A DNA stretch of 64,000 nucleotides from Clostridia bacterium (GCA_018432615.1 JAHDSQ010000004.1:105234-169233); one strand, 5' to 3'; shown: positions 2,329 to 20,591, numbered from the stretch's first letter. The notes: a model not told the origin generated them from the sequence alone. A program made the numbers and translations.

Positions 2329-2344
2329 GATAGGAGCTGGTAAC

Positions 2345-5034: not shown

Positions 5035-5079
5035 CCTTTGAGGCCGGGCGGTACATGGACAAGTTAGTGGAGGAGTGCT

Positions 5080-6027
5080 ATGGATTCCGAATCGAATGTA
5101 AACCTGCCGCGCCTGCAGCGAAAAAAAAGAAGCAACATCAAGCCGGCCGGAATATGCCTACTATTGATATTTTTCCTTTTATGCGCTATGCTGGGCTTCA
5201 TGGCAGCTCGCTGGTTTTATGACCCCTTGGTGCCTACAGATAAAAAAAGCGATGATACCCAGGCAACTCATGCCTCCGACGATATCCTCAATGTTTTAAT
5301 TTTAGGTGTGGACCAGCGGGAGAATGAGCCTGCCCGTGCCGATACAATCATTTTGGCATTCTTGAACCTGACCAAAAAGGAAGCGACACTGCTTTCGATC
5401 CCCCGGGATACCAGGGTTAAGATTGCCGAAGAAGGAACCATGCGTAAGATTAATTACGCCCATGCCGTAGGAGGCGTGGATATGACGATTGCCACCGTGG
5501 AGAATTTCCTGGATGTTCCCGTTCATTACTATGTTGAGACGAATTTCGACGGTTTTGAAAACGTTATTGACATCCTGGGAGGCGTGACTCTGAATGTAGA
5601 AGAGGTAATGTACTTTCCCGAAGAAGGAATCGACCTTAAAGATGGTTTGCAGACCTTAAACGGCCATGATGCCCTTTCCTATTGCAGGTGGCGTGGTGAC
5701 GGCCAGGGTGATATCGGCCGCATCGCCCGGCAGCAGAAATTCGCCGGTGCCTTACTGGATCAAGCAATCAGTTTATCTACCGTTTGGAAAGTGCCTGAGC
5801 TTTTGGCAGAAATGGATGAGCATTTGAAAACAAATATGAGTCTGCAGAAGATGATTGCCCTGGCCAACAAGTTTAAGAACCTAGAAGAAGTTAAATTCGA
5901 AACCCACATGGTGCCGGGGGCCCCGGACGATGTTAATTACGGGGCAAGCTACTGGATAGCCGACGACAGCGCACTGAAAGTTTTATTGGAAGAGATCCAT
6001 CAAGAAGAGAAGAAAGAGGAAGCATAA
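5080..6027 (+). CDS. LCP (LytR-CpsA-Psr) family wall-polymer ligase, paralog
   Basis: LNVLILGVDQRE...RADTIILAFLN....ATLLSIPRDTRV...YCRWR; TM anchor at the N-terminus. Confidence 0.85.
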   Translation: MDSESNVNLPRLQRKKRSNIKPAGICLLLIFFLLCAMLGFMAARWFYDPLVPTDKKSDDTQATHASDDILNVLILGVDQRENEPARADTIILAFLNLTKKEATLLSIPRDTRVKIAEEGTMRKINYAHAVGGVDMTIATVENFLDVPVHYYVETNFDGFENVIDILGGVTLNVEEVMYFPEEGIDLKDGLQTLNGHDALSYCRWRGDGQGDIGRIARQQKFAGALLDQAISLSTVWKVPELLAEMDEHLKTNMSLQKMIALANKFKNLEEVKFETHMVPGAPDDVNYGASYWIADDSALKVLLEEIHQEEKKEEA

Positions 6028-6084
6028 AAAATAAATAAAAATAATAGCTTGTAATATGGAACTTATATAAGGGGATATGCGTCT

Positions 6085-6822
6085 ATGAAAATAGAGACGG
6101 TTTCCGTTTTAGGTGTCAAGGTGGCCCGGATGTCCTTGCAGCAAGTTGTAGAGTGGATTCGGGTCATGGTAGAACAGGGAAAACCCCGGCATATTGTAAC
6201 CGCTAATGCCGAGGTGATTTACAAAGCCCATGTTGAACCGGAGTATCTTGAACTCCTGCAAAAGTCCGATCTGGTAACAGCGGACGGTTCCGGCGTGGTC
6301 CTGGCAGCAAACATGCTGGGTCAGCCCGTTCCCGAAAGGGTAGCGGGTATAGACCTGGTTGCGGAAGTCTTTGAACTGGCCGCGGAAAAAAACTGGAGCA
6401 TCTATTTTCTGGGTGCGGAACCTGATGTAGTGGAAAAAGCCGTTTTGCATACCCTGGAAAAATATCCGAGCTTGCAGATCAAGGGCTATCGCGACGGCTA
6501 TTATTCCCAGGAGGAAACCGAACAGGTAGTGTCGAATATCAATAAACTAAAGCCGGATATCTTGCTGGTGGCCTTGGGAGTACCCAAGCAAGAGGTTTTC
6601 ATCCAGCAGTATCTTAAGGAACTGGATGTTCCCTTATCCATCGGCGTAGGAGGCTCCTTTGATATCTTAGCCGGGACGGCTACCAGGGCACCCGTCTGGA
6701 TGCAAAGGGTAGGCCTGGAATGGTCCTACCGCCTGTTTAAAGAACCACGGCGCTTCAAGCGAATGCTGGCCCTGCCCAAGTTCGTTTTAGCCGTACTCAA
6801 GCAAAAGTTAACAAGGAAATAA
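6085..6822 (+). CDS. tagA: WecB/TagA/CpsF-family glycosyltransferase (ManNAc transferase type)
   Basis: VLGVKV...IVTANAEVIY.........L.KSDLVTADGSGVVLA...LG...PERVAGIDL...YFLGA.P.V and C-terminal EWSYRL..EPRR..R are family hallmarks. Confidence 0.85.
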   Translation: MKIETVSVLGVKVARMSLQQVVEWIRVMVEQGKPRHIVTANAEVIYKAHVEPEYLELLQKSDLVTADGSGVVLAANMLGQPVPERVAGIDLVAEVFELAAEKNWSIYFLGAEPDVVEKAVLHTLEKYPSLQIKGYRDGYYSQEETEQVVSNINKLKPDILLVALGVPKQEVFIQQYLKELDVPLSIGVGGSFDILAGTATRAPVWMQRVGLEWSYRLFKEPRRFKRMLALPKFVLAVLKQKLTRK

Positions 6823-6930
6823 CGTTCTAGGCAGCTTGACAATACATATAATAGAACGATGAAGACAGCTAAACCGCCAACTTCAAGACGTGGTCCTGGC
6901 TTTCGAATATTATGATATATTTGCAGGAAT

Positions 6931-7044
6931 TTGACATCGAGTGGAGAATGTACTATATTTACAAGGGGTTACAGCTCTTGTCGGAAGCGGTCTCCTTGAT
7001 ACTTCCAATTTTCCTGTTGACTTGAAGTGCTTCTGTGATATAAT
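6931..7044 (+). promoter_or_regulatory. Two candidate sigma-A promoters ahead of a ~280-nt S-layer mRNA leader
   Basis: TTGACA(6931)-17 nt-TATATT(6954), and TTGACT(7017)-16 nt-TATAAT(7039) with a TG-extended -10. There is a 508-nt non-coding gap before the TTG start at 7331. Confidence 0.35.
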
Positions 7045-7330
7045 GTGTTGTAGTGCTTGCCCGTGCATTGGCATAAGGCTTGCATAAAAATAAAAACAAA
7101 ATCTTTGGATTTAGGTTAATTGCTTGACCACCTTTGAAAGGGGGGATACGGCCACAGAGAGCTGGTATAGACTACATAGGTGAGTATGAAAAGGTTCCCG
7201 AAAATGCCTCCGCCAAGCTTGTTGCTTACGGTAGGACGGCAGGAACCAAGCCGGAAAAAAGATAACCGGCGAGACCGTCCATCAAGGATGGAGGGTTCAG
7301 AACCTTTAAAACTTTAAGGAGGGATATAGT

Positions 7331-10066
7331 TTGAAATCTAAAAAATTATTTGCCGTCATGACATTAGTAATGTTCATGATGACTCTGCTTCCCATGGTGG
7401 CATTTGGTGCAGCAGGGGACTTGACTTGTACGGCTACTGCTAATGCCGTTGCGCCTGGTGGCATAGATAATATCGTAAATGCCACAAATACTGCTTGGAA
7501 CTTCGCAGTTGCCACAGATGCTGCTGATCCGGCAATTGCTGATGGTGGCATTTTTGAAATCACCTTACCGGCAGGTTTTGTTTCAACAGGTGCTACTGTA
7601 GCTGCCGGTGGTATTACCGGAAGCACAGGTACACCTTCTACTGCGGTTGCTGTAACAACACCAACTACAAGTAAAATTAAAATCGTAGCAACCACATTTA
7701 CTACTGCAAACGCTGCCGCAGACACATACAACATTGCTGTAACCGGCATAGGTGCTAATGGTTCTACAGTCGGTGCAAATACTGCAACTGTAAATGTTTA
7801 TGCCAATGCAGCTGCGTATACTGCTGGAACGGTTCAAGCTACCGGTACTGCTACAATGGCGCTCGTTGCGGCTGGCCCTGCTAACCGTTTCACATCAATT
7901 GTTGACCAGAATAGAACTACTCAAACAGCAGACGGATCTTCAGTCGTTAAGTTTACCGTCTATGCATTTGATCAGTTCAACAACGAAGTTGCCAATCCGA
8001 CAATTTCAGTTCTGTCCAGCCGTGATGTTGATAATGTTGTGGCTGACGGTACCACCGCAGATAACGCTGGTGCATATACGTTTGATGGTGCTGGTGGAGT
8101 GGTGAAATTCAAGGTTTCTTCGACAGCTGTTGGGACATCAAAGATATACATTGCTTACGGTACTGAGGCATCGTTAAATGGAGCCGGCGCATATATAGAT
8201 GATCCAACAGATGGCAATGCTGCTACTGCACAACTGATTGACGTAAAAAGCATTACTTTCACTGCTGCTGGCATCGGTACATCACAAGGTGTTGCGATTA
8301 GCGGACAGCCAACTGGTTTTAGTGCTGCCACAGACACTGGAACAGGTGTTGATGACACCAATGCATGGTATATGCCTGCTGTAAAAGCAAACGGCATTGA
8401 CACCTATGAAATCGCGTTTAGAGTTCAGACTGATAAAGGTGTTGCTATTGCTGACCAGAATGTTGAATTCACCGTTGAGGATACTGTTGTAAAGCTTAAC
8501 AAGACTACCGCCACCACAAATGCAGCGGGTATTGTTAAGGTAAAGGCTTCTGCTACAAAAGCCGGAACATATTATGTCAAAGCAACAGCTGGTAGCCAGA
8601 GCAAAGAGCAGTACATTAAGTTTGATTCTAGTGGCGTTTATTCTTTAGAGTTGATTACCGCTGATAATCAAAAGGTTGCTAAGGACAGCGACTTCAGCTT
8701 CAAGGTACAATTGTTTGATCAAAGCGGCAACCAAATCGCTGCAAAAGCCGCTGCAGATGCAAATGACATAAACGTACAGAACTCTGTTAAACTTAAGACC
8801 ATAACTAAGCCAACCGATGCAAATATCGATGATGACATCACAGCAAGTGCTAGTACAGCCTATACGGCAACAAAAACTGATGAGGGTTACCTGAATATCA
8901 AGATTGCCGCCAGCAAGATTAACAAAGAAGGCGACTACACTGTCAAGGCTTACCTTGACAACGGGAATTCAGTTGACATGCACTTTGATGTCAAGACCCA
9001 GGGAACTGTAACAAAACTGACTGTTTCCTATTCTGCAGACAGCGTTCCTATGAATACCAAGGTGGGCAAACCGACAGTTAAGCGTTTGGATGATGCCGGT
9101 TATGCTAAAACTATGGATTTAGCCCATCCCAACATTAAGTTCACTGTCAGTGATGTCAGAAGACTTGAGGGAACCATGGGTACAGATGGATCATTCACCA
9201 GTACTAAGGACAAGAATTATGCCGGTGAACTGGTTATCACCGCAATTGACACAGAGAAAAACCTCACTGCAACAGACACCATGACTGTTATGCTACAGAC
9301 CAATGGATTCACACTGACTCCAACTGGTACGGCGGAAGTCGACAAGGCAACCAATGTTGAAATGCAGTTTGTTGATGTCAACGGTGAACCTGTATCGATA
9401 GCTGACCTCTTAGGAAACGGCATCGATATCAGTTTCCAGGTTGCCTCAAAGCCCGCGGGAGCTATAGTTACTACCGGGAAAGCCAGTAGCTATGAGCCGG
9501 ATATCAAGAAAAAAGGTAAGACCAACCTGACCATCAAGAGTGACACAGCTGGCGAAGTTAAGGTTAACGTTATTGCCACTATCAACGCTGGTGGTCCTGC
9601 TCCTGCCGCTGTTTGCACATCAGGGGGCACATACGCTCAGTCTATAACTCTTGATGTCGGTGGAGCTAAGGTCGTTGCCGGAGCTAAGTCCGTTACTATG
9701 TTCATTGGCGCAACAGGCTTCGTACAAGATGGCGCTGCCAAACTTACCGACTTAGCACCTTTTATCCAGGATAGCCGTACTTTCGTAGCAGTTCGTCCGA
9801 TTGCTGATGCTTTCGGTTGCGAAATCGGTTGGGATGAAGCTACCCAGACTGTAACACTTACCCGCGAAGACATGACTCTGACCATCGTAATTGGCTCCAA
9901 TGTCATTACAAAGGTTGCTGACGGCGTAACAACTACGTCCGAAGCTGATGTTGCCGCTTTCATCAAGGATGGCCGTACTGTACTGCCGTTCCGTGCTGTA
10001 GGCGAAGCATTCGGAGCTACTGTTGAATACGATGCAGCTACTCAGGCTGTAAGTTTCACTCAGTAA
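7331..10066 (+). CDS. S-layer-like surface protein: signal peptide, Ala/Thr/Gly/Val-rich Ig-like repeats, C-terminal CuAO-N-like tandem domain; no SLH domain seen
   Basis: TTG start 8 nt after aaggaggg. Signal peptide KKLFAVMTLVMFMMTLLPMVAFGAAG. Low-charge ATGV-rich composition typical of S-layer proteins. C-terminus LAPFIQDSRTFVAVRPIADAFGCEIGWD and AAFIKDGRTVLPFRAVGEAFGATVEYD. Long leader and a strong terminator. Confidence 0.7.
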   Translation: MKSKKLFAVMTLVMFMMTLLPMVAFGAAGDLTCTATANAVAPGGIDNIVNATNTAWNFAVATDAADPAIADGGIFEITLPAGFVSTGATVAAGGITGSTGTPSTAVAVTTPTTSKIKIVATTFTTANAAADTYNIAVTGIGANGSTVGANTATVNVYANAAAYTAGTVQATGTATMALVAAGPANRFTSIVDQNRTTQTADGSSVVKFTVYAFDQFNNEVANPTISVLSSRDVDNVVADGTTADNAGAYTFDGAGGVVKFKVSSTAVGTSKIYIAYGTEASLNGAGAYIDDPTDGNAATAQLIDVKSITFTAAGIGTSQGVAISGQPTGFSAATDTGTGVDDTNAWYMPAVKANGIDTYEIAFRVQTDKGVAIADQNVEFTVEDTVVKLNKTTATTNAAGIVKVKASATKAGTYYVKATAGSQSKEQYIKFDSSGVYSLELITADNQKVAKDSDFSFKVQLFDQSGNQIAAKAAADANDINVQNSVKLKTITKPTDANIDDDITASASTAYTATKTDEGYLNIKIAASKINKEGDYTVKAYLDNGNSVDMHFDVKTQGTVTKLTVSYSADSVPMNTKVGKPTVKRLDDAGYAKTMDLAHPNIKFTVSDVRRLEGTMGTDGSFTSTKDKNYAGELVITAIDTEKNLTATDTMTVMLQTNGFTLTPTGTAEVDKATNVEMQFVDVNGEPVSIADLLGNGIDISFQVASKPAGAIVTTGKASSYEPDIKKKGKTNLTIKSDTAGEVKVNVIATINAGGPAPAAVCTSGGTYAQSITLDVGGAKVVAGAKSVTMFIGATGFVQDGAAKLTDLAPFIQDSRTFVAVRPIADAFGCEIGWDEATQTVTLTREDMTLTIVIGSNVITKVADGVTTTSEADVAAFIKDGRTVLPFRAVGEAFGATVEYDAATQAVSFTQ

Positions 10067-10081
10067 TCTAAACGGATCTGA

Positions 10082-10114
10082 TTAGGAGAGGCCAAGGCCT
10101 CTCCTAATTTTTTT
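10082..10114 (+). terminator. Strong intrinsic terminator of the S-layer gene
   Basis: ttaggagaggcc-aa-ggcctctcctaa followed by T7. Confidence 0.75.
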
Positions 10115-10188
10115 ATATTGACATCTTTCCCTCTCACCTGTAAAATATACACAGACTCTGACCGGTGGGTCGGCGGGAGGTAATACAT

Positions 10189-11301
10189 ATGAAAAAACGA
10201 ACCAAATTGGTTATTGCAGCAATCCTGATGATTGCTTTTGTTATCTCAGCTATACCTGTAAGTGCGAATGATTTGGCATATACCATGACTTTAGGCGAAG
10301 CAAAAGAATTAGCCTTAAAAAACAGCCCTAAGATAAAGCAACAGTTAGCGGGCAATGAGATGGCAGATGTAAACCGAAGGGATGCCTGGATAAACTACGA
10401 GAAGGCAAGGGCTAATTATCAGAACACGGGGGGGATGGTTGAGGCATACAAGGAAGCTATGGATGGTGCCAGACAAGCCTACGATGCGGCGATTAATGCG
10501 GTTGATGATAGCAAGGTGATTCTGGAAAATCTGAAGAAACAGGTAGAATATGAGACAGAAAGCATGTATTTGAACCTGCTTTTAATGGATAGCAACATTA
10601 ACATGATGAAGATAAATTATGACCTGCAGGCCAAGATGAATGAGGTGGAAAACCTGAAGTTGAACCTGGGAATGAGTACGCAGTTTCAGGTTGATGAACA
10701 AAGAAGAAAAGCCATGGAGATGTCCAAACAGCTTCAGGAGCTATATAACACAAAGGAGAACCTGAGGTGGCAGTTTAACAGAAGCCTTGGCAAGGAATCT
10801 ACTTATCAAATCGAGCTTTCTCCCGTTGCCTTCCAGCCTATTGAACATGGTACGATGTCAGAAGGGCAGGATGCTGCGAAAGCAGCCGCTTTGGCAATAG
10901 AACAGTTCAATCGGACAATCGAGGATAAAAGACATGATATTGAAGAAAAGAAAGTTAATGCCTCAGACAAGGTTGAAAAGTTAGAACTGGAGATAAAGCA
11001 ATATAAATTAAACTTGGATGATACGGAATACGGAATAGACCTAATGATGAAAAATCTTCATGAGAAGGCATACCTGGCACAAAAGAGTGTCGTCGATAAT
11101 CGGGCGACCTTTGATATGGCGAAGAAAGAATTTGTCTCACAAGAGCTACAGTACGATATAGGGATGATTTCTAGAATGGTATTCGATGCAGCCAGGGCGG
11201 GATATGAGAAGAAACAGGCGGATTATCAGAAGGCGGTCTACGAATATTATCTGGTTGCCCATGAAATCAAACTGGCGGAAGAGGGGATTTTCCTCGATTG
11301 A
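10189..11301 (+). CDS. TolC/outer-membrane-efflux-protein (OEP)-like coiled-coil protein with signal peptide
   Basis: MKKRTKLVIAAILMIAFVISAIPVSA signal. MTLGEAKELALKNSPKIKQ matches the OEP N-terminal motif. The rest is long heptad-like helical sequence. Confidence 0.6.
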   Translation: MKKRTKLVIAAILMIAFVISAIPVSANDLAYTMTLGEAKELALKNSPKIKQQLAGNEMADVNRRDAWINYEKARANYQNTGGMVEAYKEAMDGARQAYDAAINAVDDSKVILENLKKQVEYETESMYLNLLLMDSNINMMKINYDLQAKMNEVENLKLNLGMSTQFQVDEQRRKAMEMSKQLQELYNTKENLRWQFNRSLGKESTYQIELSPVAFQPIEHGTMSEGQDAAKAAALAIEQFNRTIEDKRHDIEEKKVNASDKVEKLELEIKQYKLNLDDTEYGIDLMMKNLHEKAYLAQKSVVDNRATFDMAKKEFVSQELQYDIGMISRMVFDAARAGYEKKQADYQKAVYEYYLVAHEIKLAEEGIFLD

Positions 11302-11357
11302 GTTTCGCCCGGGTGAGATGGTAATAAAACAGGAAAAAGAATTGAGAAGAAATAAAT

Positions 11358-11383
11358 GAAGCCGGGCGGAATTCCGCCCGGCT
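11358..11383. terminator. Bidirectional terminator between convergent genes
   Basis: agccgggcgg-aatt-ccgcccggct perfect 10-bp stem. Confidence 0.6.
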
Positions 11384-11425
11384 AAAATACATTCCTCCAT
11401 ATTTGCTTTCTTTCTTTACTGCCTG

Positions 11426-11917
11426 CTATTCATTTTGTATAACCGTTATCTGTGCAGATCTACTGCTGATGCGCCAGATTTCGTTTTCTTTTTCTAAGGT
11501 GATTGTTTCAAAGGACCTTACCAATCCTACAAAGCGTTCATCGGTGCTGACGCTATTCTCCTCGGTCACGGCTTCGACAACAGCGGTATCACCCTCTATT
11601 TCCACTTTGTTGATGTTTGTGGAGAGTAATTCCCGGGAAATCTCATTCTCCTTGATGGATTTTTCCAGATTGGGGAGTTTCTTTTCATCATTTAAAAGGT
11701 CTTCTTTTCCTTCCTCGGTCCAGAATTCCAAACCGTCTTCCTTATTGTAGGTATCCCATTCATAGTTCTTGATGCTTTTGAAATACTCTGTAACTACTTC
11801 CTTAATAGCCTCTTCATCCGTCTTTGAACCTGTGACTTCTCCAATTTCTGCTTTTCCGCATCCAAAGAGCGAAAAGGAGATTAAAAGTAGTAATGTGACT
11901 GCTAAAAATTTCTTCAT
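11426..11917 (-). CDS. Lipoprotein of unknown function
   Basis: MKKFLAVTLLLLISFSLFGC has a lipobox (LFGC). The mature part is acidic; no family recognised. Confidence 0.6.
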   Translation of the reverse strand: MKKFLAVTLLLLISFSLFGCGKAEIGEVTGSKTDEEAIKEVVTEYFKSIKNYEWDTYNKEDGLEFWTEEGKEDLLNDEKKLPNLEKSIKENEISRELLSTNINKVEIEGDTAVVEAVTEENSVSTDERFVGLVRSFETITLEKENEIWRISSRSAQITVIQNE

Positions 11918-12041
11918 CCTGACATACCTCCGGTTAAAACAGTGATTTAAACACTACTATTCTCACATAATACGGGATAAATTGCAATGGGTATGTAAGG
12001 GCATTTCTGGTATACTAGGGGGGTAAAGTGTTGATTGTGAG

Positions 12042-13967
12042 GTGAGGTCCTTCTTGAAAAAAGGGAAAACCGTGAGAACCGCGCTGCTGCGGCTTATTGT
12101 GGTGCTGCAGGCGCTATTATTGATGTTAGTTCCTCTGACCGGATGCCAGGGGGAAACGAAAACTATGCAGCCCAGGGAGGCGGAACAAAGTTCATACGAT
12201 GTCATCGTTTTCGGCGGTGAGCCGGAAGGTATCGCGGCAGCAGTATCTGCTGCCCGCAACGGCCTTGAGACGCTGTTGTTGGAGGATGACGAGGCATTAG
12301 GTGGCTTGATGACCTTGGGGGAGCTGAATTTCCTGGATATGAACTACGGGCCTGATAAGGAGCTTCTGACCCAGGGGATATTCCGGGAGTTCTTTGAGGA
12401 AATGGACAACGCCTTTGATATAGAAGAAGCCAAGGAATACTTCCTTTGCCTGGTGGGGAAGGAGGAGAAACTTTCCTTAAAGCTGGGAGCAGAGGTTGTC
12501 GAACCTTTGCCGGAAGGAAACACTCTTACCGGGGTAAGGGTGAAGGATAAAGAAACCGGAGAGATAGAAGAATTCTACGCACGACGCATTATCGATGCCA
12601 CGGCTGATGCGGATTTGGCCGCGGCGGCAGGAGTGCCATACACCGTAGGAGCAGAAGATTACGGACAACCCGGAAAGATCATGGCGGTGACGCTGGTTTT
12701 CCGGGTCAAGGGGGTCAGCTGGCCTCAAGTCTACATACATAATAATTTCAGCCGGGTGGCGAGCAAGCTCAAAGCAGGCTGGGGAGACCCGAATGCGGGA
12801 GCGACCCGGAAGGTGGCCTGGGGTTACGGGGAGCAGGCTTTGCGTTATGAGCCAAGGGATGAGATGTTGAGCTTTCGCGGGCCTAACCTAGCCCGGCAGA
12901 AGGATGGGAGTGTCCTGATCAATGCCCTTTTGCTTTTCGGGGTAGACGGTCTAGATCCGGACTCCAAGGAAGAAGGAATCAAGAGGGGGAAAGAAGAAAT
13001 CCCACATATTATCGAGTTCATGCGGGAGGAATTTCCCGGCTTTGCCCAGGCGGAGCTGGTGAGTACGGCAGAGCAACTGTATGTCCGGGAGACACGGCAT
13101 ATCCAAGGGGAATACCGGCTGACAATTACCGATGTCCTGGAAAACAGGGATCACTGGGACAGGATCGCTCATGGCAGTTATCCGGTAGATGTGCAGCAAA
13201 CCGGCCCCGGAGACTTGGGGAACGTCATCGGCAAGCCAGCCATATATAGCATACCTTTCCGCTGCTTAGTGCCTTTAAAGGTGGACAACCTCCTGGTGGT
13301 CGGGAGGAGTGCTTCCTATGATTCCCTGCCTCACGGCAGTGCCAGGGTCATCCCGGTGGGGATGGCCACCGGGGAAGCGGCAGGAGTTGCCTGTGCCTAT
13401 GGGATAGAAAACGAGATGACCTTCCGTGAGATGACTTCCTCTCGGGAAGCGGTGGGCTGGATTCAGGAGAGGCTCAAGGAAGAGGGGGCCTATCTGGTAG
13501 AGTATGAACCGCCCCGGCCTGAGGTGATGGAACACTGGGCCTATCCCGGAGTGAAGGTGATGCGGGAGCTGGGCTTAGCCGCAGGGGGGTACAGTAACGA
13601 TTACCGCCTGGAGGCCCCGGTATTTTGTTGGGATGCCGATTACCACTTGCAGCAGGTTATCGAGCGGCTGGGGAACTTGAAAGCCGGGGGATCGGAAGGC
13701 GCCGAGGGGTCAGGAGACATAAAGGAAACCGGAATAACTTTGCGTAATGTAAAGTTTCCTGAGAACTTGACAAGAGGTATGTTCCTGGCAGGGCTGGCCC
13801 AGGCCTTGGGGGAAGAAGCGGAGACTCCCCAGGAAGCCCTGGAGTTCTTGCGGGAACGTGGGATCAACCCGGGGATACCGGAGGAACTGCTGGAAGATAC
13901 AGACGGAGCTGCAACCTTCGGGGAGCTCTATGTTCTTTTAAGCAATATTATTGAGCAGATACGCTGA
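12042..13967 (+). CDS. Exported (lipobox LTGC) FAD-dependent-oxidoreductase-fold protein with an SLH-like C-terminal segment
   Basis: Dinucleotide-binding motif YDVIVFGGEPEGIAAAVSAARNG right after the signal. C-terminal HWAYPGVKVMRELGLAAGGYSNDY and LTRGMFLAGLAQAL resemble SLH motifs. Confidence 0.7.
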   Translation: MRSFLKKGKTVRTALLRLIVVLQALLLMLVPLTGCQGETKTMQPREAEQSSYDVIVFGGEPEGIAAAVSAARNGLETLLLEDDEALGGLMTLGELNFLDMNYGPDKELLTQGIFREFFEEMDNAFDIEEAKEYFLCLVGKEEKLSLKLGAEVVEPLPEGNTLTGVRVKDKETGEIEEFYARRIIDATADADLAAAAGVPYTVGAEDYGQPGKIMAVTLVFRVKGVSWPQVYIHNNFSRVASKLKAGWGDPNAGATRKVAWGYGEQALRYEPRDEMLSFRGPNLARQKDGSVLINALLLFGVDGLDPDSKEEGIKRGKEEIPHIIEFMREEFPGFAQAELVSTAEQLYVRETRHIQGEYRLTITDVLENRDHWDRIAHGSYPVDVQQTGPGDLGNVIGKPAIYSIPFRCLVPLKVDNLLVVGRSASYDSLPHGSARVIPVGMATGEAAGVACAYGIENEMTFREMTSSREAVGWIQERLKEEGAYLVEYEPPRPEVMEHWAYPGVKVMRELGLAAGGYSNDYRLEAPVFCWDADYHLQQVIERLGNLKAGGSEGAEGSGDIKETGITLRNVKFPENLTRGMFLAGLAQALGEEAETPQEALEFLRERGINPGIPEELLEDTDGAATFGELYVLLSNIIEQIR

Positions 13968-14023
13968 GCTTGAGGCTGAAGTTGGCGAATATTTGGAGGA
14001 AAAGAAGGAGGGAAACCCCTTTG

Positions 14024-15862
14024 ATGAAAAGAAAGAGGACCGGGATTCTTGGGATATCGGCAATAATATTGCTGGTAGCCGTTTCCTGCGGGATATATTA
14101 CCTATTTGCAAAGAATAAGCCGGCTCCCGGGCCGATGATTGACGGGAAGCCGGGGTATGATGTAATCGTGGTAGGAGGAGAGCCGGAAGGTGTGGCGGCT
14201 GCCCTATCTGCCGCCAGGAATGGGATGAAGACCCTGCTGGTGGAGGATGATGAGGCCCTAGGGGGCTTGATGACCCTGGGAAGGTTAAATTTCCTGGATA
14301 TGAATCACGGACCGCAGGGAGAGCTTCTGACCAGGGGTATTTTTCAGGAAATTTATGATGTTCTCGGCAACGCCTTTGATGTTACACAGGCCAAGGAGCT
14401 GTTCCGGGAAAAGGTGGAGAAGGAAAAGAATATTACGCTGTTGTTGAATACTTCACTGGTGGAGCCGCTGATGGACGGGAAAGAGATTGTTGGTGTCAAG
14501 GTCGAAGAAGAGGGGGTAGAAAAGGAGTATCTCAGTCTTTGTACGATTGATGCCACGGTTGATGCCGATGTGGCGGCAGCGGCGGGAGTGCCTTACACCG
14601 TAGGGGGCGAGGATTACGGAGAAGAAGGTCTTTTGATGGGTGTGACTTTGGTCTTTGAGGTCAAGGGAGTGGACTGGGACAGGGTCATCCAATACTTAAA
14701 GCGTGAGGATGACGATCCTCATTCCGGTGCCGACCAGGTGGCGGCCTGGGGCTATGGAAAAGAAGCTATGGGGTATGTGCCTCATGATGAGCAGATGAGG
14801 TTCAGGGGGCCGAATTTGGCCCGTCAGGATGACGGGAACGTCTTGATCAATGCCCTGTTGATTTTCGGGGTGGATAGCCTGGATGAGGAATCGAGACAGC
14901 TGGGGATCGAACGGGGGAAAAAGGAAATCCCATATATTATTGAGTTCATGCGGGAGAAATTCCCCGGTTTTGCGGAGGTTGAGTTTGTCGATACGGCAGA
15001 AGAGCTGTATGTCAGGGAGACGAGGCATATCCAGGGGGAGTACCGCCTGAGTATCACCGATGTTCTGGAGAACCGAGATCAGTGGGATCGGATCGGACAC
15101 GGCAGTTATCCGGTGGATGTCCAGCCCACGGGGCCGGAGAATTTCGGAAATGTCATCGGGAAGCCCGCTATTTATAGTATTCCTTTCCGCTGTTTGGTGC
15201 CCTTGGAGATAGACGGGCTTTTGGTGGTAGGAAGGAGTGCCTCCTATGACTCCTTGCCCCATGGAAGCGCCCGGGTTATTCCCGTGGGGATGACCACCGG
15301 CGAAGCGGCGGGAGTGGCCTGTGCCTATGCTGTGGAAAATGAAGTGACCTTCCGGCAGATGACGGCTGAGCCGGATGCGATACAATGGGTGCAGGAAGGC
15401 TTGAAGAAGCAGGGGGCCTATCTGGTAGAGTACGAGCCGCCCCGGCCTGAGGTGATGGAGCATTGGGCCTACCCCGGCGTGAAGGTGATGCGGGAGTTGG
15501 GTCTGATTGAAGGAGGATATGTCAACGATTACGGCCTGGAAAGAAGGGCCAATAAATGGAACATCGAAAACAAGTTGAACAAGGTTTTGCGTCTGGCTCA
15601 TGAGAGGAATGAAGGGGTAGAGTTAAGAAGGTTAGAAGTGCCTCTTGAGGTCACCAGAAGGGTTTTCCTGGAGGTGGTAGCCGAGGGCTTGACCGGCAAG
15701 AAGATGGATTACGCCGAGGCGTTAGATTTGCTAAAGGAAGCGGGAATCGTTACTCCTTTTCTGGAAAAGCGCTTTGCGTATGGGGACGAGGCTCCTGATT
15801 TCGGTGAGATGCTGACGGTACTGGCGAATTTGTATAATCATTTGATGGACGGCAAGGTATAA
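14024..15862 (+). CDS. Paralog of the preceding exported FAD-fold protein
   Basis: It shares long identical blocks with 12042-13967 (FRGPNLARQ, YVRETRHIQGEYRL, GKPAIYSIPFRCLVPL, LLVVGRSASYDSLPHGSARVIPVGM, YLVEYEPPRPEVMEHWAYPGVKVMRELGL). It has an N-terminal TM/signal ILGISAIILLVAVSCG. ATG 14024 follows aaggaggg; the track ORF starts at 13970. Confidence 0.7.
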   Translation: MKRKRTGILGISAIILLVAVSCGIYYLFAKNKPAPGPMIDGKPGYDVIVVGGEPEGVAAALSAARNGMKTLLVEDDEALGGLMTLGRLNFLDMNHGPQGELLTRGIFQEIYDVLGNAFDVTQAKELFREKVEKEKNITLLLNTSLVEPLMDGKEIVGVKVEEEGVEKEYLSLCTIDATVDADVAAAAGVPYTVGGEDYGEEGLLMGVTLVFEVKGVDWDRVIQYLKREDDDPHSGADQVAAWGYGKEAMGYVPHDEQMRFRGPNLARQDDGNVLINALLIFGVDSLDEESRQLGIERGKKEIPYIIEFMREKFPGFAEVEFVDTAEELYVRETRHIQGEYRLSITDVLENRDQWDRIGHGSYPVDVQPTGPENFGNVIGKPAIYSIPFRCLVPLEIDGLLVVGRSASYDSLPHGSARVIPVGMTTGEAAGVACAYAVENEVTFRQMTAEPDAIQWVQEGLKKQGAYLVEYEPPRPEVMEHWAYPGVKVMRELGLIEGGYVNDYGLERRANKWNIENKLNKVLRLAHERNEGVELRRLEVPLEVTRRVFLEVVAEGLTGKKMDYAEALDLLKEAGIVTPFLEKRFAYGDEAPDFGEMLTVLANLYNHLMDGKV

Positions 15863-15886
15863 CGGTGTAAGCGGGAGGAAGGAAAG

Positions 15887-17839
15887 ATGGGTGGTTTAAA
15901 GGGCATGAGCGGCCTGAAAAAAACGGCGGTGGTATTGATTATCCTCAGTATGATGGTTTCCCTGGGACTGGACTATTTTCGGGTGCAGGCGGAGATTGAA
16001 TACAAGCAGGTTCAGGTGTTGCTGGATTATGACGAATTGAGGGATTTGGCCGCGGCCCAAGGGATGAGTGTGGAGAAACTGGCTGTTCGTTTTAAAAAAC
16101 AGGGCGCCACGGGAGTTATGATGAGGGAGCGGACCCTGGAGGATTTGGAAAAGTCGGGAGATATCATGCTGGTGGGCGGAGCCGAGGCTCAAATATTACA
16201 GGAGCTGGAGCCCTCGTTTTTGGGCGGAACTGAGCCGATCAAGGAAAACAGGTACATTGTGACGAAGGATAAAGAAGTCTACCAGGGCTTGCTTCGTAGC
16301 TTGCAGGCGGATCCGGGAGATGTGGCCGGGGGAGAAGAGGACGGCTATTATTGGCTGAATTTTTTTGCCTCGGAAAAGGATTTACTCAAGAGGGGTGTGG
16401 GGTTTTTCCCGCAAGATATTAAGCCCCTGGCAGAGGCCGGGCTGAGGGTTGTGCCCCGAATTAGGAGCTACGGCAGTGTCTGCCTTGCAGAGGTGGAGGA
16501 ATATCTGGACCTGTTTACAGAATACGGCACGCCGCTGGTGGCCTTTAACGATGAGGCCATACCCTGCTTGGGAGAGATACCTACTTTAGCCGAAAGGCTG
16601 CAAGAAGCCGGGGCTTATGTGGGAACCTTTGAGTTCTTTGAACAGCAGGGGATGGCCTCCTTAGCCCTGCAGAATGAGAAGAATGTGGTTAGGATTCATT
16701 CAATCAGTGAAAATGAAATGCCCCAATATTTTGAGGAAAAGGCGCTGGAGCGCTTTAACCTGGCGGTGGCGGAAAGAAACATCCGGGCTTTGTATGTGCG
16801 CTTTTTTGGTCTGGAGCAGCCGGAGGCTGCCCTGGAGCGGAATCTGGAATTTGTGGGCAGCATCAAGGCAGATTTGGAAGCCGAAGGATTTGTGATAGGA
16901 GAAGGCCAAGGGCCGGACAGTCCACCCTATTCCGTGTGGTTGATGCTGATTATTGGCCTGGGAGTTATCGGAGGTCTCTTGCTGTGGGGGGAAGCGGTGC
17001 TACCTAAAAAGTTGGTTTGGGCCGGGGGTGTTGCCGGTCTGATTGGTTGGGTGGCCTTGCTGTATCTTACGCCGGTGTTGGCCCGTAAGGCCTTTGCTCT
17101 TTTGAGCGTGGTTGTTTTTCCGGTCATCGGTATAACGGCGGTTGTGAAGCAAAAAGCGGCCGGGGAAGAGAAGAAATTCAAACAAGCGGTGATAATGCTT
17201 TTAAAGATAGCGGGAATCAGTTTGGTGGGTGCTATGATCATGACAGGGCTTTTGGGGGATAAATCCTTTATGCTGAAGATTAACGGGTTCAGCGGGGTGA
17301 AACTGGCGCATTTGCTGCCCCTTGTGGCGGTACCGGCATATTTGCTGTATGATGGGGAAGGTGCCAGAGAAATATTTGTCAAGCTGAAAAAGCTTCTGGA
17401 GAACCCGGTTTTGCTGGGGCAGGTGGTAGGAGGGGCCTTGCTGTTGGCAGCTCTGGCGGTATATCTCTTGCGGACGGGTAACGACAGCGGGGTTTTGGTG
17501 ACCTCTTGGGAGATGAAGATGAGAAGCCTTTTGGACCAGGTGTTGGGCGTGCGGCCCAGGACAAAGGAGTTTTTGCTGGGGCATCCGGCCATGCTGCTTT
17601 TACTGTATTACGGCTATGACAGGAAAGATTTGAAGAAGAATGCCCTGTTGTTGCTGGGTACTATCGGTCAGGTTTCATTGGTCAATACTTATGCCCATAT
17701 CCATACGCCCTTGGTGGTTTCGGTTATTCGTTCCTTTCACGGGCTGTGGCTGGGGGTATTGTTGGGAGTGTGCGCTATAGTGGTTATTAACTTATGCTTG
17801 CGATATCTGCACAATGCGGAGAGTGATGCCGGTGAGTAA
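15887..17839 (+). CDS. Large polytopic membrane protein (N-terminal ~330-aa extracytoplasmic domain + ~10 TM); recalls DUF5693-type proteins that accompany csaB
   Basis: N-terminal TM, a soluble domain, then hydrophobic segments from WLMLIIGLGVIGGLLLW onward. Translationally coupled to csaB. The family name is from memory and not verified. Confidence 0.55.
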   Translation: MGGLKGMSGLKKTAVVLIILSMMVSLGLDYFRVQAEIEYKQVQVLLDYDELRDLAAAQGMSVEKLAVRFKKQGATGVMMRERTLEDLEKSGDIMLVGGAEAQILQELEPSFLGGTEPIKENRYIVTKDKEVYQGLLRSLQADPGDVAGGEEDGYYWLNFFASEKDLLKRGVGFFPQDIKPLAEAGLRVVPRIRSYGSVCLAEVEEYLDLFTEYGTPLVAFNDEAIPCLGEIPTLAERLQEAGAYVGTFEFFEQQGMASLALQNEKNVVRIHSISENEMPQYFEEKALERFNLAVAERNIRALYVRFFGLEQPEAALERNLEFVGSIKADLEAEGFVIGEGQGPDSPPYSVWLMLIIGLGVIGGLLLWGEAVLPKKLVWAGGVAGLIGWVALLYLTPVLARKAFALLSVVVFPVIGITAVVKQKAAGEEKKFKQAVIMLLKIAGISLVGAMIMTGLLGDKSFMLKINGFSGVKLAHLLPLVAVPAYLLYDGEGAREIFVKLKKLLENPVLLGQVVGGALLLAALAVYLLRTGNDSGVLVTSWEMKMRSLLDQVLGVRPRTKEFLLGHPAMLLLLYYGYDRKDLKKNALLLLGTIGQVSLVNTYAHIHTPLVVSVIRSFHGLWLGVLLGVCAIVVINLCLRYLHNAESDAGE

Positions 17840-18953
17840 GGTAGTGATTTCAGGCTACTACGGCTTTGACAACGTGGGGGATGAAAGTATCCTGTACGCG
17901 ATTATTGGGGCGCTGCAAAAGGAAGTACCGGGAGTAGAGATAACGGTGCTTTCCCACGATCCCGAGGGGACAGCGGCCAGGTATGGCGTGAAGGCAGTTA
18001 ACCGCTGGAATCCTGCGACTGTGCTTGAAGCACTGGTGCCGGCGGATTTATTGATCAGCGGCGGGGGCTCTCTTTTGCAGGATGTCAGCAGCAGGATTAG
18101 TCCTTTGTATTACCTGTCGGTAATCCTGCTGGCTAAGATGCTGAGAAAACGAGTGTTGGTTTATGCCCAGGGAATAGGGCCTTTGGAAAAAAGAACGACC
18201 CGGCGTATGACTGCCTCTGTTTTTAACCGGCTGCGTCACATAACGGTGCGGGATGAAGAGTCGAGACAGGAGCTGTTATCCCTGGGGGTCGGGCAAGAAA
18301 TCACGGTGGCTGCGGATCCGGTCCTGGGTCTTTACGGCGGTGATTTTGACGCCGAGGTCGGAAAAAGGATCTTGGAGAGAAACGGCATACAGGACGGTGA
18401 GGGACAAAAGACGATCGGGGTCTTTATCCGTTCCTGGCGCGACAACAGTTTTCTGCCGGCTTTGGCAGAGGCTTGTGATTGTTTAGTGAAGCAGGGGTGT
18501 CGGGTGGTCTTTGTGCCCCTCCATTACCCTCATGATATGGGTATCGCTCAAGAGGCTGTCAAACTGATGCGGCAGAAGGCTTTCTGTCTGCAGGAGGGCT
18601 ATTTCCCCTGGGAGGTTCTTTCCCTAATGAAAAACCTCGACGTTGCGGTAGGGATGAGGCTCCACGCTTTGATTAACGGGGCGGTGGCAGGAATTCCGGT
18701 TGTCGGGATAAGCTATGACCCTAAGGTTGAGCGGTTTTTAGGGCAGATAGGGCAGCAGGCCTTGTCGGCAGACGATCTTGATGCCGCCGATTTGACAGCG
18801 GTCGTTAACGAGGCCTTGGTGAGCGGCGGGAAGACGATGGAGGAGTTGCAAGACCGTTTGGCGGATTTGGCTAAAAAAGCCGTTTTGCCGGCGCAAAGGG
18901 CAGCGGAAATTTTGCGAAAGAAAGAAGCTTCAAGGTATAAGGAATCTGAATGA
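17826..18953 (+). CDS. csaB: Polysaccharide pyruvyl transferase CsaB
   Basis: KVVISGYYGFDNVGDESILYAIIGALQ at the N-terminus and LLISGGGSLLQD are CsaB signatures. The start overlaps the upstream ORF end. Confidence 0.8.
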   Translation: MPVSKVVISGYYGFDNVGDESILYAIIGALQKEVPGVEITVLSHDPEGTAARYGVKAVNRWNPATVLEALVPADLLISGGGSLLQDVSSRISPLYYLSVILLAKMLRKRVLVYAQGIGPLEKRTTRRMTASVFNRLRHITVRDEESRQELLSLGVGQEITVAADPVLGLYGGDFDAEVGKRILERNGIQDGEGQKTIGVFIRSWRDNSFLPALAEACDCLVKQGCRVVFVPLHYPHDMGIAQEAVKLMRQKAFCLQEGYFPWEVLSLMKNLDVAVGMRLHALINGAVAGIPVVGISYDPKVERFLGQIGQQALSADDLDAADLTAVVNEALVSGGKTMEELQDRLADLAKKAVLPAQRAAEILRKKEASRYKESE

Positions 18954-18986
18954 TGATGCTTGAATGACGGTGAAGGAGAGGAAAGG

Positions 18987-20549
18987 ATGGGCGGGGTAGC
19001 AAGAGCAACTTTGGTAATAATATTTATGAACGTGGCCGGCAAGCTGCTGGGCTTTATCCGGGAGACGGTAATAGCCGGGCAGTACGGGGCAACCCATCTG
19101 ACGGATGCTTACCTAGTGGCCTATACTTTGCCCTACTTTCTGCAGACGGTGCTGGGGATGGCTTTGGTCACGGTCATTGTGCCTGTGGTGACCAAGTACC
19201 TGGTCAGGGATGAAAAGGAAGAGGCCTGGCGGATTGCCAGCATTACTTTGAATTGGACGGTGCTCTTCATGGTGGCCTTTACCTTGCTGGGGGTTATCGG
19301 GGCCAAGGTGCTGGTCTATCTGACCGCTCCCGGCTTTGATGAGGCTACTGCCGGATTGGCCCAAACCCTTACTGTCATAATGTTCCCTTCGGTTATTTTT
19401 ATGGGTGCGGGGATGCTGGTCTCGGGGATACTGAATGCTAACAAGTCTTTTGCGGCGGCGGCTTTTGTCCCGGGCTTTATCAGTCTGGTGATTATTCTCT
19501 TCGTCTTGGCGCTGGGACGCTTTGGTGTGGGTTATCTGGCTTGGGGGACTTTGGTCGGCATGAGCGGTTCCTTGTTCATCCAATTACCGGCTTTGCGCCG
19601 GGTGGGGTTTCGCTATTCCTGGGATTGGAGTTTTAAGCACCCGGAGGTCAAAGGGATCTTCGCCAACATCTTTCCTATCTTTTTGGGTACGGCTGTAAAC
19701 CAGTTGTATCTGGCGATCAATCGGATTTTCGCTTCCGGGCTGGCGGAGGGCAGTATTTCCGCTTTGAACTATGCCAGCAAGTTGATGAACCTGCCCTTGG
19801 GGGTCTTTGTACTGGCCGTTTCGTCGGCCATTTACCCTACCTTGGCGGAGCAGGCGGTGCGGGAGGATAAGGAAAAGCTGATTTTAACCTTAAACAGAGG
19901 CTTAAAGATGGTACTGCTGGTTACTTTCCCGGCGGCGGTGGGATTGATGGCGCTGGATGCCCCTATTGTCAAGCTGCTTTTTGAAAGAGGGGCTTTTGAT
20001 GCCCAGGCTACAAAAATGACGGCGCAAGCCCTTTTCTTCTTCGGGACGGGGATGTTTGCCATGGGTGCCAATATGGTGATCACGCGAGCTTATTACGCCC
20101 TGCGGGATGTCAAGACGCCGCTTATGATGGGACTCTTGTCGGTGGTCGTTAATGTCCTGGCCAGTGTGGTTTTTACCCGTTATCTGGGACACAGCGGTTT
20201 GGCTTTGGCTAACAGCGTGGCGGCTATTTTCAATACCGTAGCCCTTTATGCCCTTTTGACCCGGCGCTTTCCCCGCCTATATTTTGCAGAGCTGGCTGTA
20301 TCCGGTGGCAAGTCCCTGGGGGCCTCGTTGCTGACGGGATTGGCCGCCTTTTATACCTATGGCTACCTGGCAGGGGGTGTTCTGGCGGCTCAGGGAAGCA
20401 GGGTGCTGCTGGTGAGAGTCATGGTGGCTGTAACGGTGGGAGTGGCAGTGTACGGGGTAAGCATTATTGCGTTAAGGGAAAAGGAAGCCCTGTATCTCTT
20501 CAAGGCCGGGCTCGATAAAATTAGGGTACGATTGGCAAAAGGTATTTAG
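18987..20549 (+). CDS. murJ: MurJ/MviN-family (MOP superfamily) flippase
   Basis: ATLVIIFMNVAGKLLGFIRETVIAGQYGATHLTDAYLVAYTLPYFL plus 14 predicted TM segments. Confidence 0.85.
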   Translation: MGGVARATLVIIFMNVAGKLLGFIRETVIAGQYGATHLTDAYLVAYTLPYFLQTVLGMALVTVIVPVVTKYLVRDEKEEAWRIASITLNWTVLFMVAFTLLGVIGAKVLVYLTAPGFDEATAGLAQTLTVIMFPSVIFMGAGMLVSGILNANKSFAAAAFVPGFISLVIILFVLALGRFGVGYLAWGTLVGMSGSLFIQLPALRRVGFRYSWDWSFKHPEVKGIFANIFPIFLGTAVNQLYLAINRIFASGLAEGSISALNYASKLMNLPLGVFVLAVSSAIYPTLAEQAVREDKEKLILTLNRGLKMVLLVTFPAAVGLMALDAPIVKLLFERGAFDAQATKMTAQALFFFGTGMFAMGANMVITRAYYALRDVKTPLMMGLLSVVVNVLASVVFTRYLGHSGLALANSVAAIFNTVALYALLTRRFPRLYFAELAVSGGKSLGASLLTGLAAFYTYGYLAGGVLAAQGSRVLLVRVMVAVTVGVAVYGVSIIALREKEALYLFKAGLDKIRVRLAKGI

Positions 20550-20591
20550 AGAGAAATGTAGAATAATGCCAGTGTGAGGTGGTTGGTTACC

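Follow-up and report, generated by a model that had tools for sequence, protein, structure and literature searches.

A probable S-layer gene with a Cu_amine_oxidN1 end inside a predicted CsaB wall-polymer locus

In an uncultured, spore-forming anaerobe of the Bacillota (class Peptococcia), a gene for the ketal-pyruvyl transferase CsaB lies 7.7 kb downstream of a gene for an S-layer-like protein in which a sequence-only reading had seen no SLH domain. This raises the question of how the protein is attached at the cell surface, and of what CsaB serves. The sequence-only reading offered two answers: that the C-terminal copper-amine-oxidase-N-like (CuAO-N) domain of the protein is the wall anchor, possibly on the same pyruvylated polymer, or that CsaB serves other SLH-like proteins of the cluster. 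Both were followed up in the window, the whole 64-kb stretch of DNA analysed, and in related loci. All features described below are on the + strand, and most of the elements that had been described were found where they had been placed.

The locus and its S-layer-like gene

Profile searches found TagO, TagA, two LCP ligases, CsaB and the MOP flippase MurJ all within 3488–22213. The gene order is small CuAO-N protein, LCP, LCP, TagA, S-layer gene, TolC-like gene, two FAD-like genes, DUF5693, CsaB, MurJ, FabZ and TagO, and by this content it is predicted to be a conserved secondary cell-wall polymer (SCWP) locus. The small CuAO-N gene (3488–4078; PF07833, E 2.4e-55) encodes a membrane-anchored protein with an N-terminal TM segment, a coiled coil and one Cu_amine_oxidN1 domain. 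It heads an operon with two LCP (LytR-CpsA-Psr) glycopolymer ligases (4123–5034, PF03816 E 3.6e-46; 5080–6027, PF03816 E 1.2e-43) and a TagA/WecG-type ManNAc transferase (6085–6822; PF03808, E 3.3e-65). Both this leading position and the order of the five genes as far as the S-layer gene are kept in at least nine species. The gene that follows the S-layer gene (10165–11301) encodes a secreted TolC/OEP-type protein with a coiled coil, which scores 21 bits against PF02321, slightly below the cut-off; its homologue in the relative L012 scores E 2.7e-15. In the relatives it is invariably 3' of the S-layer gene and co-varies with it.

Further downstream, two PF12831 paralogs, the DUF5693 gene and csaB form a block that is conserved in the relatives. 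The DUF5693 gene (15887–17839; PF18949, E 1e-164), which has a 26-nt overlap with csaB and adjoins it in every relative examined, encodes a polytopic membrane protein. The csaB product (17814–18953) scores 287.5 bits against TIGR03609 (S_layer_CsaB; cut-off 213.1) and matches PF04230 (PS_pyruv_trans, E 2.2e-41), an equivalog score and a domain that confirm its membership of the CsaB family, and tagA, tagO, a MOP flippase and LCP ligases are nearby, as is typical of CsaB linkage. Next are a MurJ/MOP-family flippase (18960–20549; TIGR01695, 339.5 bits, cut-off 235.6), which is placed as csaA is in the csaAB operon of B. anthracis, a housekeeping FabZ-like dehydratase (20574–21017; PF07977) and a TagO/WecA-type GlcNAc-1-P transferase, the SCWP initiation enzyme (21146–22213; PF00953 E 2.2e-44, TIGR02380-like).

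The S-layer-like gene (7331–10066, TTG start) encodes 911 amino acids: a signal peptide (MKSKKLFAVMTLVMFMMTLLPMVAFGA), a hypervariable N-terminal region, Ig-like (Big_1) repeats and the C-terminal CuAO-N domain. With its Sec signal peptide, acidic pI (4.62), Ala and Thr richness (14.9% and 14.1%, 29% together) and only 3 Cys, it has the general make-up of S-layer proteins, as it does in joining a conserved, putatively anchoring end to a hypervariable body that would be exposed. Its Ig-like domains match intimin and 4uid, which was deposited as a ‘surface layer protein’. These properties, the expression signals described below and the precedent of Syntrophomonas wolfei Swol_0133 make it a probable S-layer protein. 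Swol_0133, an acidic, predicted S-layer protein, exceeds all other envelope proteins of S. wolfei in abundance (PMC3582634); it is likened to the 911-aa protein by description, its sole recognisable domain being a C-terminal CuAO-N domain (IPR012854).

The tandem promoters, leader of ca. 280 nt, strong ribosome-binding site and terminator that had been claimed for this gene were all located, as consensus matches. The sites P1 (TTGACA-17-TATATT, 6931–6959) and P2 (TTGACT-16-TATAAT with an extended -10 TG, 7017–7044) are each 11/12 sigma-70-like matches. Promoter-like sites occur at chance level in the scanned region (9 found, 9.6 expected from shuffles), and the two sites are credible mainly because P2 is conserved in relatives: it is kept in L010, L001, L008, L009 and L017, while P1 is common to the closest relative, L010, only. 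The leader implied by these sites (7052–7330), ca. 280 nt long, ends with the ribosome-binding site AAGGAGGG before the TTG start. It has blocks that are invariant in 9 species while the encoded proteins diverge, and some compensatory pairs (RNAalifold); no Rfam family matched it. The promoter, like the leader, is conserved across these 9 species. An intrinsic terminator (10080–10109) with a 13-bp stem, a 4-nt loop and a T-run follows the gene. Like the gene as predicted here, S-layer genes are usually monocistronic, have a long 5' UTR and are framed by a strong promoter and a strong terminator.

The C-terminal domain as a putative anchor

SLH-anchored S-layer proteins have three tandem PF00395 repeats at one terminus, and the 911-aa protein has none. 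PF00395 was absent at E<=10 from the whole protein and from three overlapping pieces of it, a search of the six-frame ORFs with a purpose-built SLH HMM (--max) found no SLH in it, and its family profile aligned to an SLH-trimer profile with a probability of 0.09% (hhalign). The sensitive search that might have overturned the sequence-only reading thus left it standing. There is no canonical SLH domain anywhere in the 64 kb, and PF07833 was found in two genes, 3488–4078 and 7331–10066.

The only terminal module of the 911-aa protein is one Cu_amine_oxidN1 domain, the putative envelope-attachment module (residues 801–908, 9731–10054; PF07833, 97 bits, E 8e-28, gathering cut-off 24.2). It had been described as a tandem domain; it is a single Pfam domain of two internal half-repeats. 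Its AF2 model (pLDDT 89.8) has the amine-oxidase N-domain fold, matching the N-domain of E. coli amine oxidase (6grr, 1oac) with a probability of 1.00 and an rmsd of 2.3 A over 78 residues. Among solved structures the model matches only this stalk domain, and shows no similarity to a carbohydrate-binding domain.

The conservation of the domain exceeds by far that of the remainder of the protein, and is also higher than that of the adjacent TagA and LCP enzymes. Together with its modular, terminal placement on many different secreted proteins, this is the evolutionary signature of an anchor. Its mean identity across homologues is 82%, versus 26% for the N-terminal body. Between this locus and L010 the flanks are 95–97% identical, the S-layer body 30% and the C-terminus 91%; the body of the gene has been replaced as a cassette, with the CuAO-N end retained. 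Near copies of the domain are found on diverse secreted proteins with Big_1, peptidase, PG-hydrolase, LRR or lectin domains, and never with SLH in the 61 closest representative homologues. Wall hydrolases of D. reducens also carry PF07833 (PMC4137172). The literature experiments found on PF07833 concern homodimerisation (PMC10432803) and absent cell labelling (bioRxiv 10.64898/2026.09.23.753664), and none concerns wall binding. In the latter, P. thiaminolyticus cells were unlabelled by a CuAO-N probe, a weak negative, as a canonical SLH trimer likewise failed.

SLH-like tails and the candidate clients of CsaB

The two PF12831 (FAD_oxidored) paralogs immediately precede DUF5693-csaB and apparently share its operon. 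Paralog 1 (12042–13967; E 1.3e-96) begins with the lipoprotein signal LTGC and ends in a tail of ca. 150 aa (13437–13964); paralog 2 (13970–15862; E 3.3e-98) has an N-terminal TM anchor and a corresponding tail (15365–15859). For both tails the best fold matches in the PDB are SLH trimers (Foldseek). The AF2 model of the paralog 2 tail (pLDDT 92.5) matches the SLH trimer 3pyw with a probability of 0.99 and a TMq of 0.50, but an E of 0.059; further matches are 7sv5, 6cwl, 6cwn and 6cwc (TM about 0.5), and the top matches include SpaA-SLH with bound pyruvylated ManNAc. The best PDB match of the tail profile is also an SLH protein (8bz2), weak at E 0.43, and the tail and SLH profiles align at 67% over 47 columns (hhalign). 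No single sequence test is significant: the paralog 2 tail scores 12.4 bits against PF00395, below the cut-off of 20.8, and the paralog 1 tail has no match. These weak but convergent signals suggest that the tails carry a divergent SLH-like fold.

An important, conserved feature of SLH is the TRAE-type motif, whose Arg recurs in every repeat. The consensus of 34 tails shows no conserved Arg where this motif aligns; its invariant positions are H23, W24, A25, Y26, R33, L35, G40, G41, Y42, N44 and Y46. Because the tails lack this conserved Arg, it is doubtful that they would bind pyruvylated ManNAc in the canonical way. In two relatives, L012 and L018, canonical SLH-trimer proteins adjoin homologous CuAO-N S-layer genes.

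Because the paralog tails appear SLH-like and canonical SLH proteins occur in these two relatives, CsaB does not need the CuAO-N domain as a client, and the most likely users of its product are SLH-type modules rather than that domain. The second of the two answers, that CsaB serves other SLH-like proteins, is therefore the more directly supported: in its favour are the SLH-like fold matches of the tails and the SLH proteins of the relatives, and against it are the sub-threshold sequence scores and the missing TRAE Arg. The first holds as far as anchor-like conservation and modularity go, and its suggestion of the same pyruvylated polymer is weakened by the acidity of the domain and by a model that matches only the E. 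coli stalk domain.

The reading preferred here, with a probability of roughly 0.55, is that the 911-aa S-layer protein is held by its CuAO-N domain instead of SLH, and that the CsaB polymer serves SLH-type modules. It is built on the observed fold similarity of the tails, gene and domain content, conservation and synteny. The ORF would be transcribed alone from a strong, conserved promoter with a long, conserved leader, and the protein would be exported by Sec; its hypervariable N-terminal region and Ig-like body would form the exposed layer, and the conserved C-terminal domain would replace SLH in holding it to the envelope, with peptidoglycan, the SCWP or a protein partner as candidate ligands. 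The locus would make and ligate a TagO/TagA-primed, CsaB-pyruvylated SCWP, the clients of which may be the two extracytoplasmic PF12831 paralogs, through their divergent SLH-like tails, and canonical SLH proteins elsewhere in the genome; the lack of a canonical SLH protein in the 64 kb speaks against this.

Three other explanations were weighed. The CuAO-N domain could be a protein–protein module, forming a homodimer within the lattice or pairing with the membrane-anchored small CuAO-N protein as a membrane tether. A crystallographic study identified PF07833 as a homodimerisation domain in the secreted Cys-less Cu/Zn-SOD of Paenibacillus lautus, where it is N-terminal (8imd; PMC10432803), and it is a predicted dimeriser in multi-flavinylated proteins (PMC11334425). 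8imd is the nearest PDB sequence match of the CuAO-N domain, a weak one (E 0.047), but its fold departs from that of the E. coli domain, and the model, a good match to the E. coli domain, is a poor match to 8imd. At the head of the locus, every species examined encodes a TM-anchored protein with CuAO-N as its single domain. However, the domain of this small protein is much less conserved (32–62% identity outside the closest relative, versus 53–87% for the S-layer C-terminus), which is not what obligate, co-evolving partners would be expected to show, and a membrane protein of 196 aa would be unlikely to span a Gram-positive wall. The presence of the domain on many unrelated enzymes is also more in keeping with a shared wall ligand than with a part in building the lattice, and a protein–protein role is considered unlikely.

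The domain could alternatively be a functional analogue of SLH that directly binds the CsaB-pyruvylated ManNAc-GlcNAc polymer, which would explain a gene between tagA and csaB. The S-layer gene directly 3' of TagA and the small CuAO-N gene at the head of the LCP-LCP-TagA operon are consistent with this, as are the extreme conservation of the domain, which fits a conserved glycan ligand, the invariant Arg residues of the two half-repeats (R816, R822, R882 and R888), the absence of SLH from the 61 sampled CuAO-N proteins and a window without a canonical SLH protein. Yet the domain is acidic in 8 of the 11 homologues (pI 4.3–4.9), unexpected for a binder of an anionic polymer, and resembles no solved carbohydrate-binding domain; CsaB has other plausible clients, in the relatives and in its own operon; and E. 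coli, whose amine oxidase has the same Pfam domain, has no such polymer. Direct binding is thus rather improbable. Similarly improbable is a broader proposal, in which PF07833 is a second Bacillota envelope anchor of SLH-independent origin that uses the same pyruvylated polymer. If this were true, leader, variable body, CuAO-N anchor and TolC-like partner would make up an S-layer cassette, retained between tagA and csaB since anchor and polymer cooperate, and the PF12831 pseudo-flavoenzyme pair would dock on the polymer via degenerate SLH-like tails and process it.

Least probable is that the 911-aa protein is no S-layer protein but a large adhesin or other surface protein of the usual Ig-repeat kind, near csaB by coincidence. 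Adhesins typically have Big_1 and invasin-like repeats such as these, but the expression signals, the conserved long leader, the composition and a cassette-like hypervariability between conserved ends are characteristic of S-layer genes, its place in the wall-polymer locus is fixed in at least nine species, and Swol_0133 is a precedent.

Related loci and proteins

Relative to known systems, what is new is a probable S-layer gene inside a predicted pyruvylated-SCWP locus with a CuAO-N end and not SLH, Swol_0133 being the precedent for such an end. Comparable loci of Paenibacillus and Bacillus have SLH-type S-layer genes. The Paenibacillus SCWP, a pyruvylated ManNAc-GlcNAc polymer, is made by TagO, TagA and CsaB and ligated to the wall by LCP enzymes (PMC6030368; bioRxiv 10.64898/2026.09.23.753664). 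The P. alvei SpaA and P. thiaminolyticus SlsA locus (spaA, orf1, csaB, tagA, tagO, fabZ) likewise has its S-layer gene amid csaB, tagA, tagO and fabZ, the fabZ gene flanking it there also (bioRxiv 10.64898/2026.09.23.753664). Unlike SpaA and SlsA, the S-layer protein described here has a C-terminal PF07833 domain instead of an SLH trimer, and the locus has further genes, for a small CuAO-N protein, a TolC-like protein and two PF12831 paralogs whose tails are SLH-like. In the sap/eag and csaAB region of Bacillus anthracis, CsaB also adjoins a MOP-family flippase near S-layer genes. The pyruvylated SCWP is the anchor ligand there (PMC7759979). Sap and EA1 have N-terminal SLH trimers (3pyw), whereas here the SLH-like fold is on the two FAD-like paralogs only.

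PF07833 is also the single non-cohesin module of the cell-surface protein OlpC of C. thermocellum and of the scaffoldin ScaG of Acetivibrio cellulolyticus, which has the architecture of OlpC (PMC3413522). Unlike the 911-aa protein, these are cellulosome scaffoldins and not S-layer proteins, and their PF07833 domain is N-terminal to a single cohesin.

Gene content of the locus and the 911-aa protein

Many Firmicute S-layers follow the textbook arrangement, in which SLH domains bind pyruvylated secondary cell-wall polymer (SCWP), and CsaB, the ketal-pyruvyl transferase of this polymer, is taken as its marker. In Peptococcia and related Clostridia the complete pyruvylated-polymer locus is kept, yet the S-layer gene ends in a different module. 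The S-layer/SCWP locus is itself known; what is new here is that the putative anchor module has been swapped.

A series of + strand genes occupies 3488–22763; they were identified by Pfam and NCBIfam scans. The first encodes a small protein with a TM segment, a coiled coil and a single Cu_amine_oxidN1 (CuAO-N, PF07833) domain (3488–4078; Pfam and sequence). It is followed by two LCP ligases (4123–5034 and 5080–6027; Pfam), TagA/WecG (6085–6822; Pfam), the 911-aa S-layer-like protein (7331–10066; Pfam and sequence) and a secreted, weakly TolC/OEP-like coiled-coil protein (10165–11301; Pfam). The remainder encodes two PF12831 'FAD_oxidored' paralogs, FAD1 and FAD2 (12042–13967 and 13970–15862; Pfam), DUF5693 (15887–17839; Pfam), CsaB (17814–18953), MurJ (18960–20549; NCBIfam), FabZ (20574–21017; Pfam), TagO (21146–22213; Pfam and NCBIfam) and an SH3 protein (22200–22763; Pfam). 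An ORF at 11403–11750 (+) was rejected as a gene: its translation is of low complexity, and it lies antisense to a conserved 163-aa gene (11426–11917, − strand). Upstream of the locus, 1531–3236 holds a toxin-antitoxin/nuclease cluster (a HTH-Uma2 fusion, a MazE-like antitoxin and a ParE toxin), in the place of which the homologous locus of one relative (L001) has sporulation, MreB and flagellar-rod genes.

The sequence-only reading had placed csaB in a cluster with an S-layer-like gene that has no SLH domain, and both parts were confirmed. CsaB scores 287.5 bits against TIGR03609, above the cut-off of 213.1. Neither Pfam, run at E ≤ 10 on pieces that overlap, nor an unfiltered SLH HMM over all six-frame ORFs detected an SLH domain in the 911-aa protein; hhalign put the probability that its family profile matches one of bona fide SLH trimers at 0.09%; and a PDB profile search returned no SLH protein, the matches being intimin Ig domains and 4uid, deposited as 'surface layer protein'. 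An SLH domain hidden within the protein was dismissed after these four independent searches. Behind its signal peptide the protein carries Big_1 Ig-like domains, and a single PF07833 match (97 bits) covers residues 801–908. The C-terminal CuAO-N-like module noticed by eye is thus present, but it is not in tandem: it is a single Pfam domain of two half-repeats. The mature protein has a pI of 4.6, 29% Ala+Thr and three Cys. A published precedent is Swol_0133, a predicted S-layer protein and the envelope protein of highest abundance in Syntrophomonas wolfei; the one domain recognised in it is CuAO-N-like and C-terminal (PMC3582634).

Replacement of the S-layer-like gene and conservation of its leader

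Eleven homologues of the 911-aa protein, 40–66% identical overall, were used to compute a conservation gradient. Mean identity is 79% in the signal peptide, 26% in the N-terminal region, 33–44% in the Ig-like middle and 82% in the C-terminal 131 aa. The locus was sought in a single genome for each species, which gave 13 loci, and at least nine species share an identical order: small CuAO-N protein, LCP, LCP, TagA, leader, S-layer-like gene, TolC-like gene. In the closest relative (L010, MAG 'Clostridia bacterium SM3-B6.2'), the flanking genes are 95–97% identical to those of the window, the body of the S-layer protein 30%, its C-terminal domain 91% and the downstream TolC-like gene 22%. The body has thus been exchanged as a cassette while the ends were kept, a pattern to be expected of an S-layer gene.

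The gene for the secreted, half-size TolC/OEP-like coiled-coil protein always follows the S-layer gene and diverges in step with the S-layer body; the two appear to move as a single cassette. Their joint variation suggests that the two proteins are functional partners, in a presumably monoderm organism. In L010 a further secreted protein (479 aa; 12687–14123 in that locus), with CuAO-N at its N-terminus, is encoded between these two genes.

The expression signals claimed for the S-layer gene (tandem promoters, a ~280-nt leader, a strong RBS and a terminator) were all found as predicted sites. Two promoter-like sites, each matching at 11 of 12 positions, lie upstream of the gene; the total of such sites across the scanned region is at the level of chance, and it is conservation in relatives that lends these credibility. 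The RBS, AAGGAGGG, precedes a TTG start, and the terminator stem is 13 bp. Leader, RBS and TTG start are almost invariant between species, and the leader (7052–7330) is kept in nine of them: that of the window and those of loci L010, L001, L008, L009, L011, L013, L016 and L017. The invariant blocks are TTTAGGTTAATTGCT, GAAAGGGGGGAT.CGGCCAC, TACATAG, GGAACC and GGTTCAGAACCTT..AGGAGGGATATAGTTTG, and there are small hairpins with a few compensatory pairs. Rfam at the gathering threshold found no family anywhere in the window, leader included. The leader may be an mRNA-stabilising or regulatory element not described before.

The CuAO-N domain as a putative anchor

Most likely, the 911-aa protein is an S-layer protein held by its PF07833 module, a putative anchor, and is encoded within a pyruvylated-SCWP locus. 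The proposal that CuAO-N is the wall anchor, perhaps on the CsaB polymer, is partly supported, by conservation and by a modular distribution that excludes SLH. Across species the CuAO-N C-terminus is 53–91% conserved, compared to 52–70% for TagA and 43–63% for the LCPs. When 1.84 billion representatives were searched exhaustively, the domain turned up in 31,485 clusters, and the best matches were overwhelmingly proteins of 700–900 aa with the domain at the extreme C-terminus. A Pfam scan covered 61 of 123 full-length representatives: none of the 61 had SLH alongside CuAO-N, about half (32) had Big_1, and single cases had M28 or trypsin peptidases, a cell-wall hydrolase, LRR, lectin or beta-helix. 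Such a distribution would be expected of a surface-display module. Published carriers of PF07833 include wall hydrolases from D. reducens (PMC4137172) as well as the cell-surface protein OlpC and the scaffoldin ScaG (both PMC3413522).

The part of the proposal that concerns a wall ligand found no direct support. The only structural match to the AF2 model (pLDDT 89.8) is the E. coli amine oxidase stalk domain, and the domain is acidic in most homologues. A PF07833 domain homodimerises in a single structural study (PMC10432803), and P. thiaminolyticus cells were not labelled by a CuAO-N probe, though a canonical SLH trimer likewise failed in that experiment. For these reasons a second explanation is still live, that CuAO-N is a protein-protein module, possibly pairing with the membrane-anchored small CuAO-N protein. 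An obligate pair is harder to reconcile with the small protein's CuAO-N domain, which is far less conserved than the S-layer C-terminus. It is unlikely that PF07833 itself reads the pyruvylated polymer. With its extremely conserved 131-aa domain, the locus is a compact handle on what the widespread PF07833 binds.

The probable csaB operon and the candidate clients of CsaB

FAD1, FAD2, DUF5693, CsaB, MurJ, FabZ, TagO and the SH3 protein form a block conserved in Peptococcia. The complete Thermanaerosceptrum fracticalcis genome has this block too, with no S-layer gene in the ~8 kb upstream of it; csaB thus belongs to a housekeeping wall-polymer locus, and the S-layer cassette sits beside it. Similarly, csaB, tagA, tagO and fabZ flank the S-layer gene in Paenibacillus, but there the S-layer is of the SLH type. 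The product of CsaB is most likely used by SLH-type modules, namely the degenerate SLH-like tails encoded in the csaB operon and putative canonical SLH proteins from outside the window.

The spacing of the genes (2 nt between FAD1 and FAD2, a 26-nt overlap of DUF5693 and csaB, 6 nt between csaB and murJ) suggests a single operon from FAD1 to MurJ. The PF12831 paralogs are a conserved pair upstream of DUF5693-csaB, and both are extracytoplasmic, one with a lipobox (LTGC) and the other with an N-terminal TM segment. Both have GGEPEG in place of GxGxxG, as at least 77 of 120 PF12831 homologues have GGEPEG or GGDPEG, with lipoprotein signals or TM anchors present; these proteins may therefore lack canonical FAD binding. 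A PDB search with the FAD-like domain returned generic Rossmann segments only.

The C-terminal ~150 aa of both proteins contain an invariant motif, HWAY...R.LG...GGY.N.Y. Four signals, each weak, converge on an SLH-like assignment of these tails: Pfam SLH at 12.4 bits, a best PDB profile match to the SLH protein 8bz2 (E 0.43), an hhalign probability of 67% with bona fide SLH trimers, and the AF2 model (pLDDT 92.5), whose best PDB fold match is the SLH trimer 3pyw (probability 0.99, E 0.059, TM 0.50), with SpaA-SLH bound to pyruvylated ManNAc also among the top matches. The tails do not conserve the TRAE-motif Arg, which makes canonical ligand binding uncertain. In Thermotalea metallivorans and one Bacillota MAG (L018), genes for canonical SLH-trimer proteins, confirmed by Pfam, directly adjoin the homologous CuAO-N S-layer genes, so that both anchoring systems coexist in related genomes. 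The idea that CsaB serves other SLH-like proteins, the FAD-fold paralogs included, thus gains from the tails and from these neighbouring trimers, and is weakened by the missing Arg.

Read by eye, DUF5693 begins with a large extracytoplasmic domain and continues in many TM helices, and it adjoins csaB in every relative examined; a PDB search found no relative of solved structure. In P. alvei, the uncharacterised 'orf1' that lies upstream of csaB might belong to this family. Two PF12831 proteins with SLH-like tails, then DUF5693 and CsaB, are flagged here as a conserved operon.

Elsewhere in the window, a 661-aa protein (59941–61926, − strand) combines seven RCC1 repeats with an fn3 domain, and neither an SLH nor a CuAO-N anchor was detected in this protein. 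A Tad/Flp-type pilus cluster lies between 45965–53181 (prepilin peptidase, TadE, TadG-like, RcpC/CpaB, a response-regulator-ParA ATPase, a T2SSE ATPase and two T2SSF), with DegS/DegU-type two-component genes upstream of it (42885–44692).
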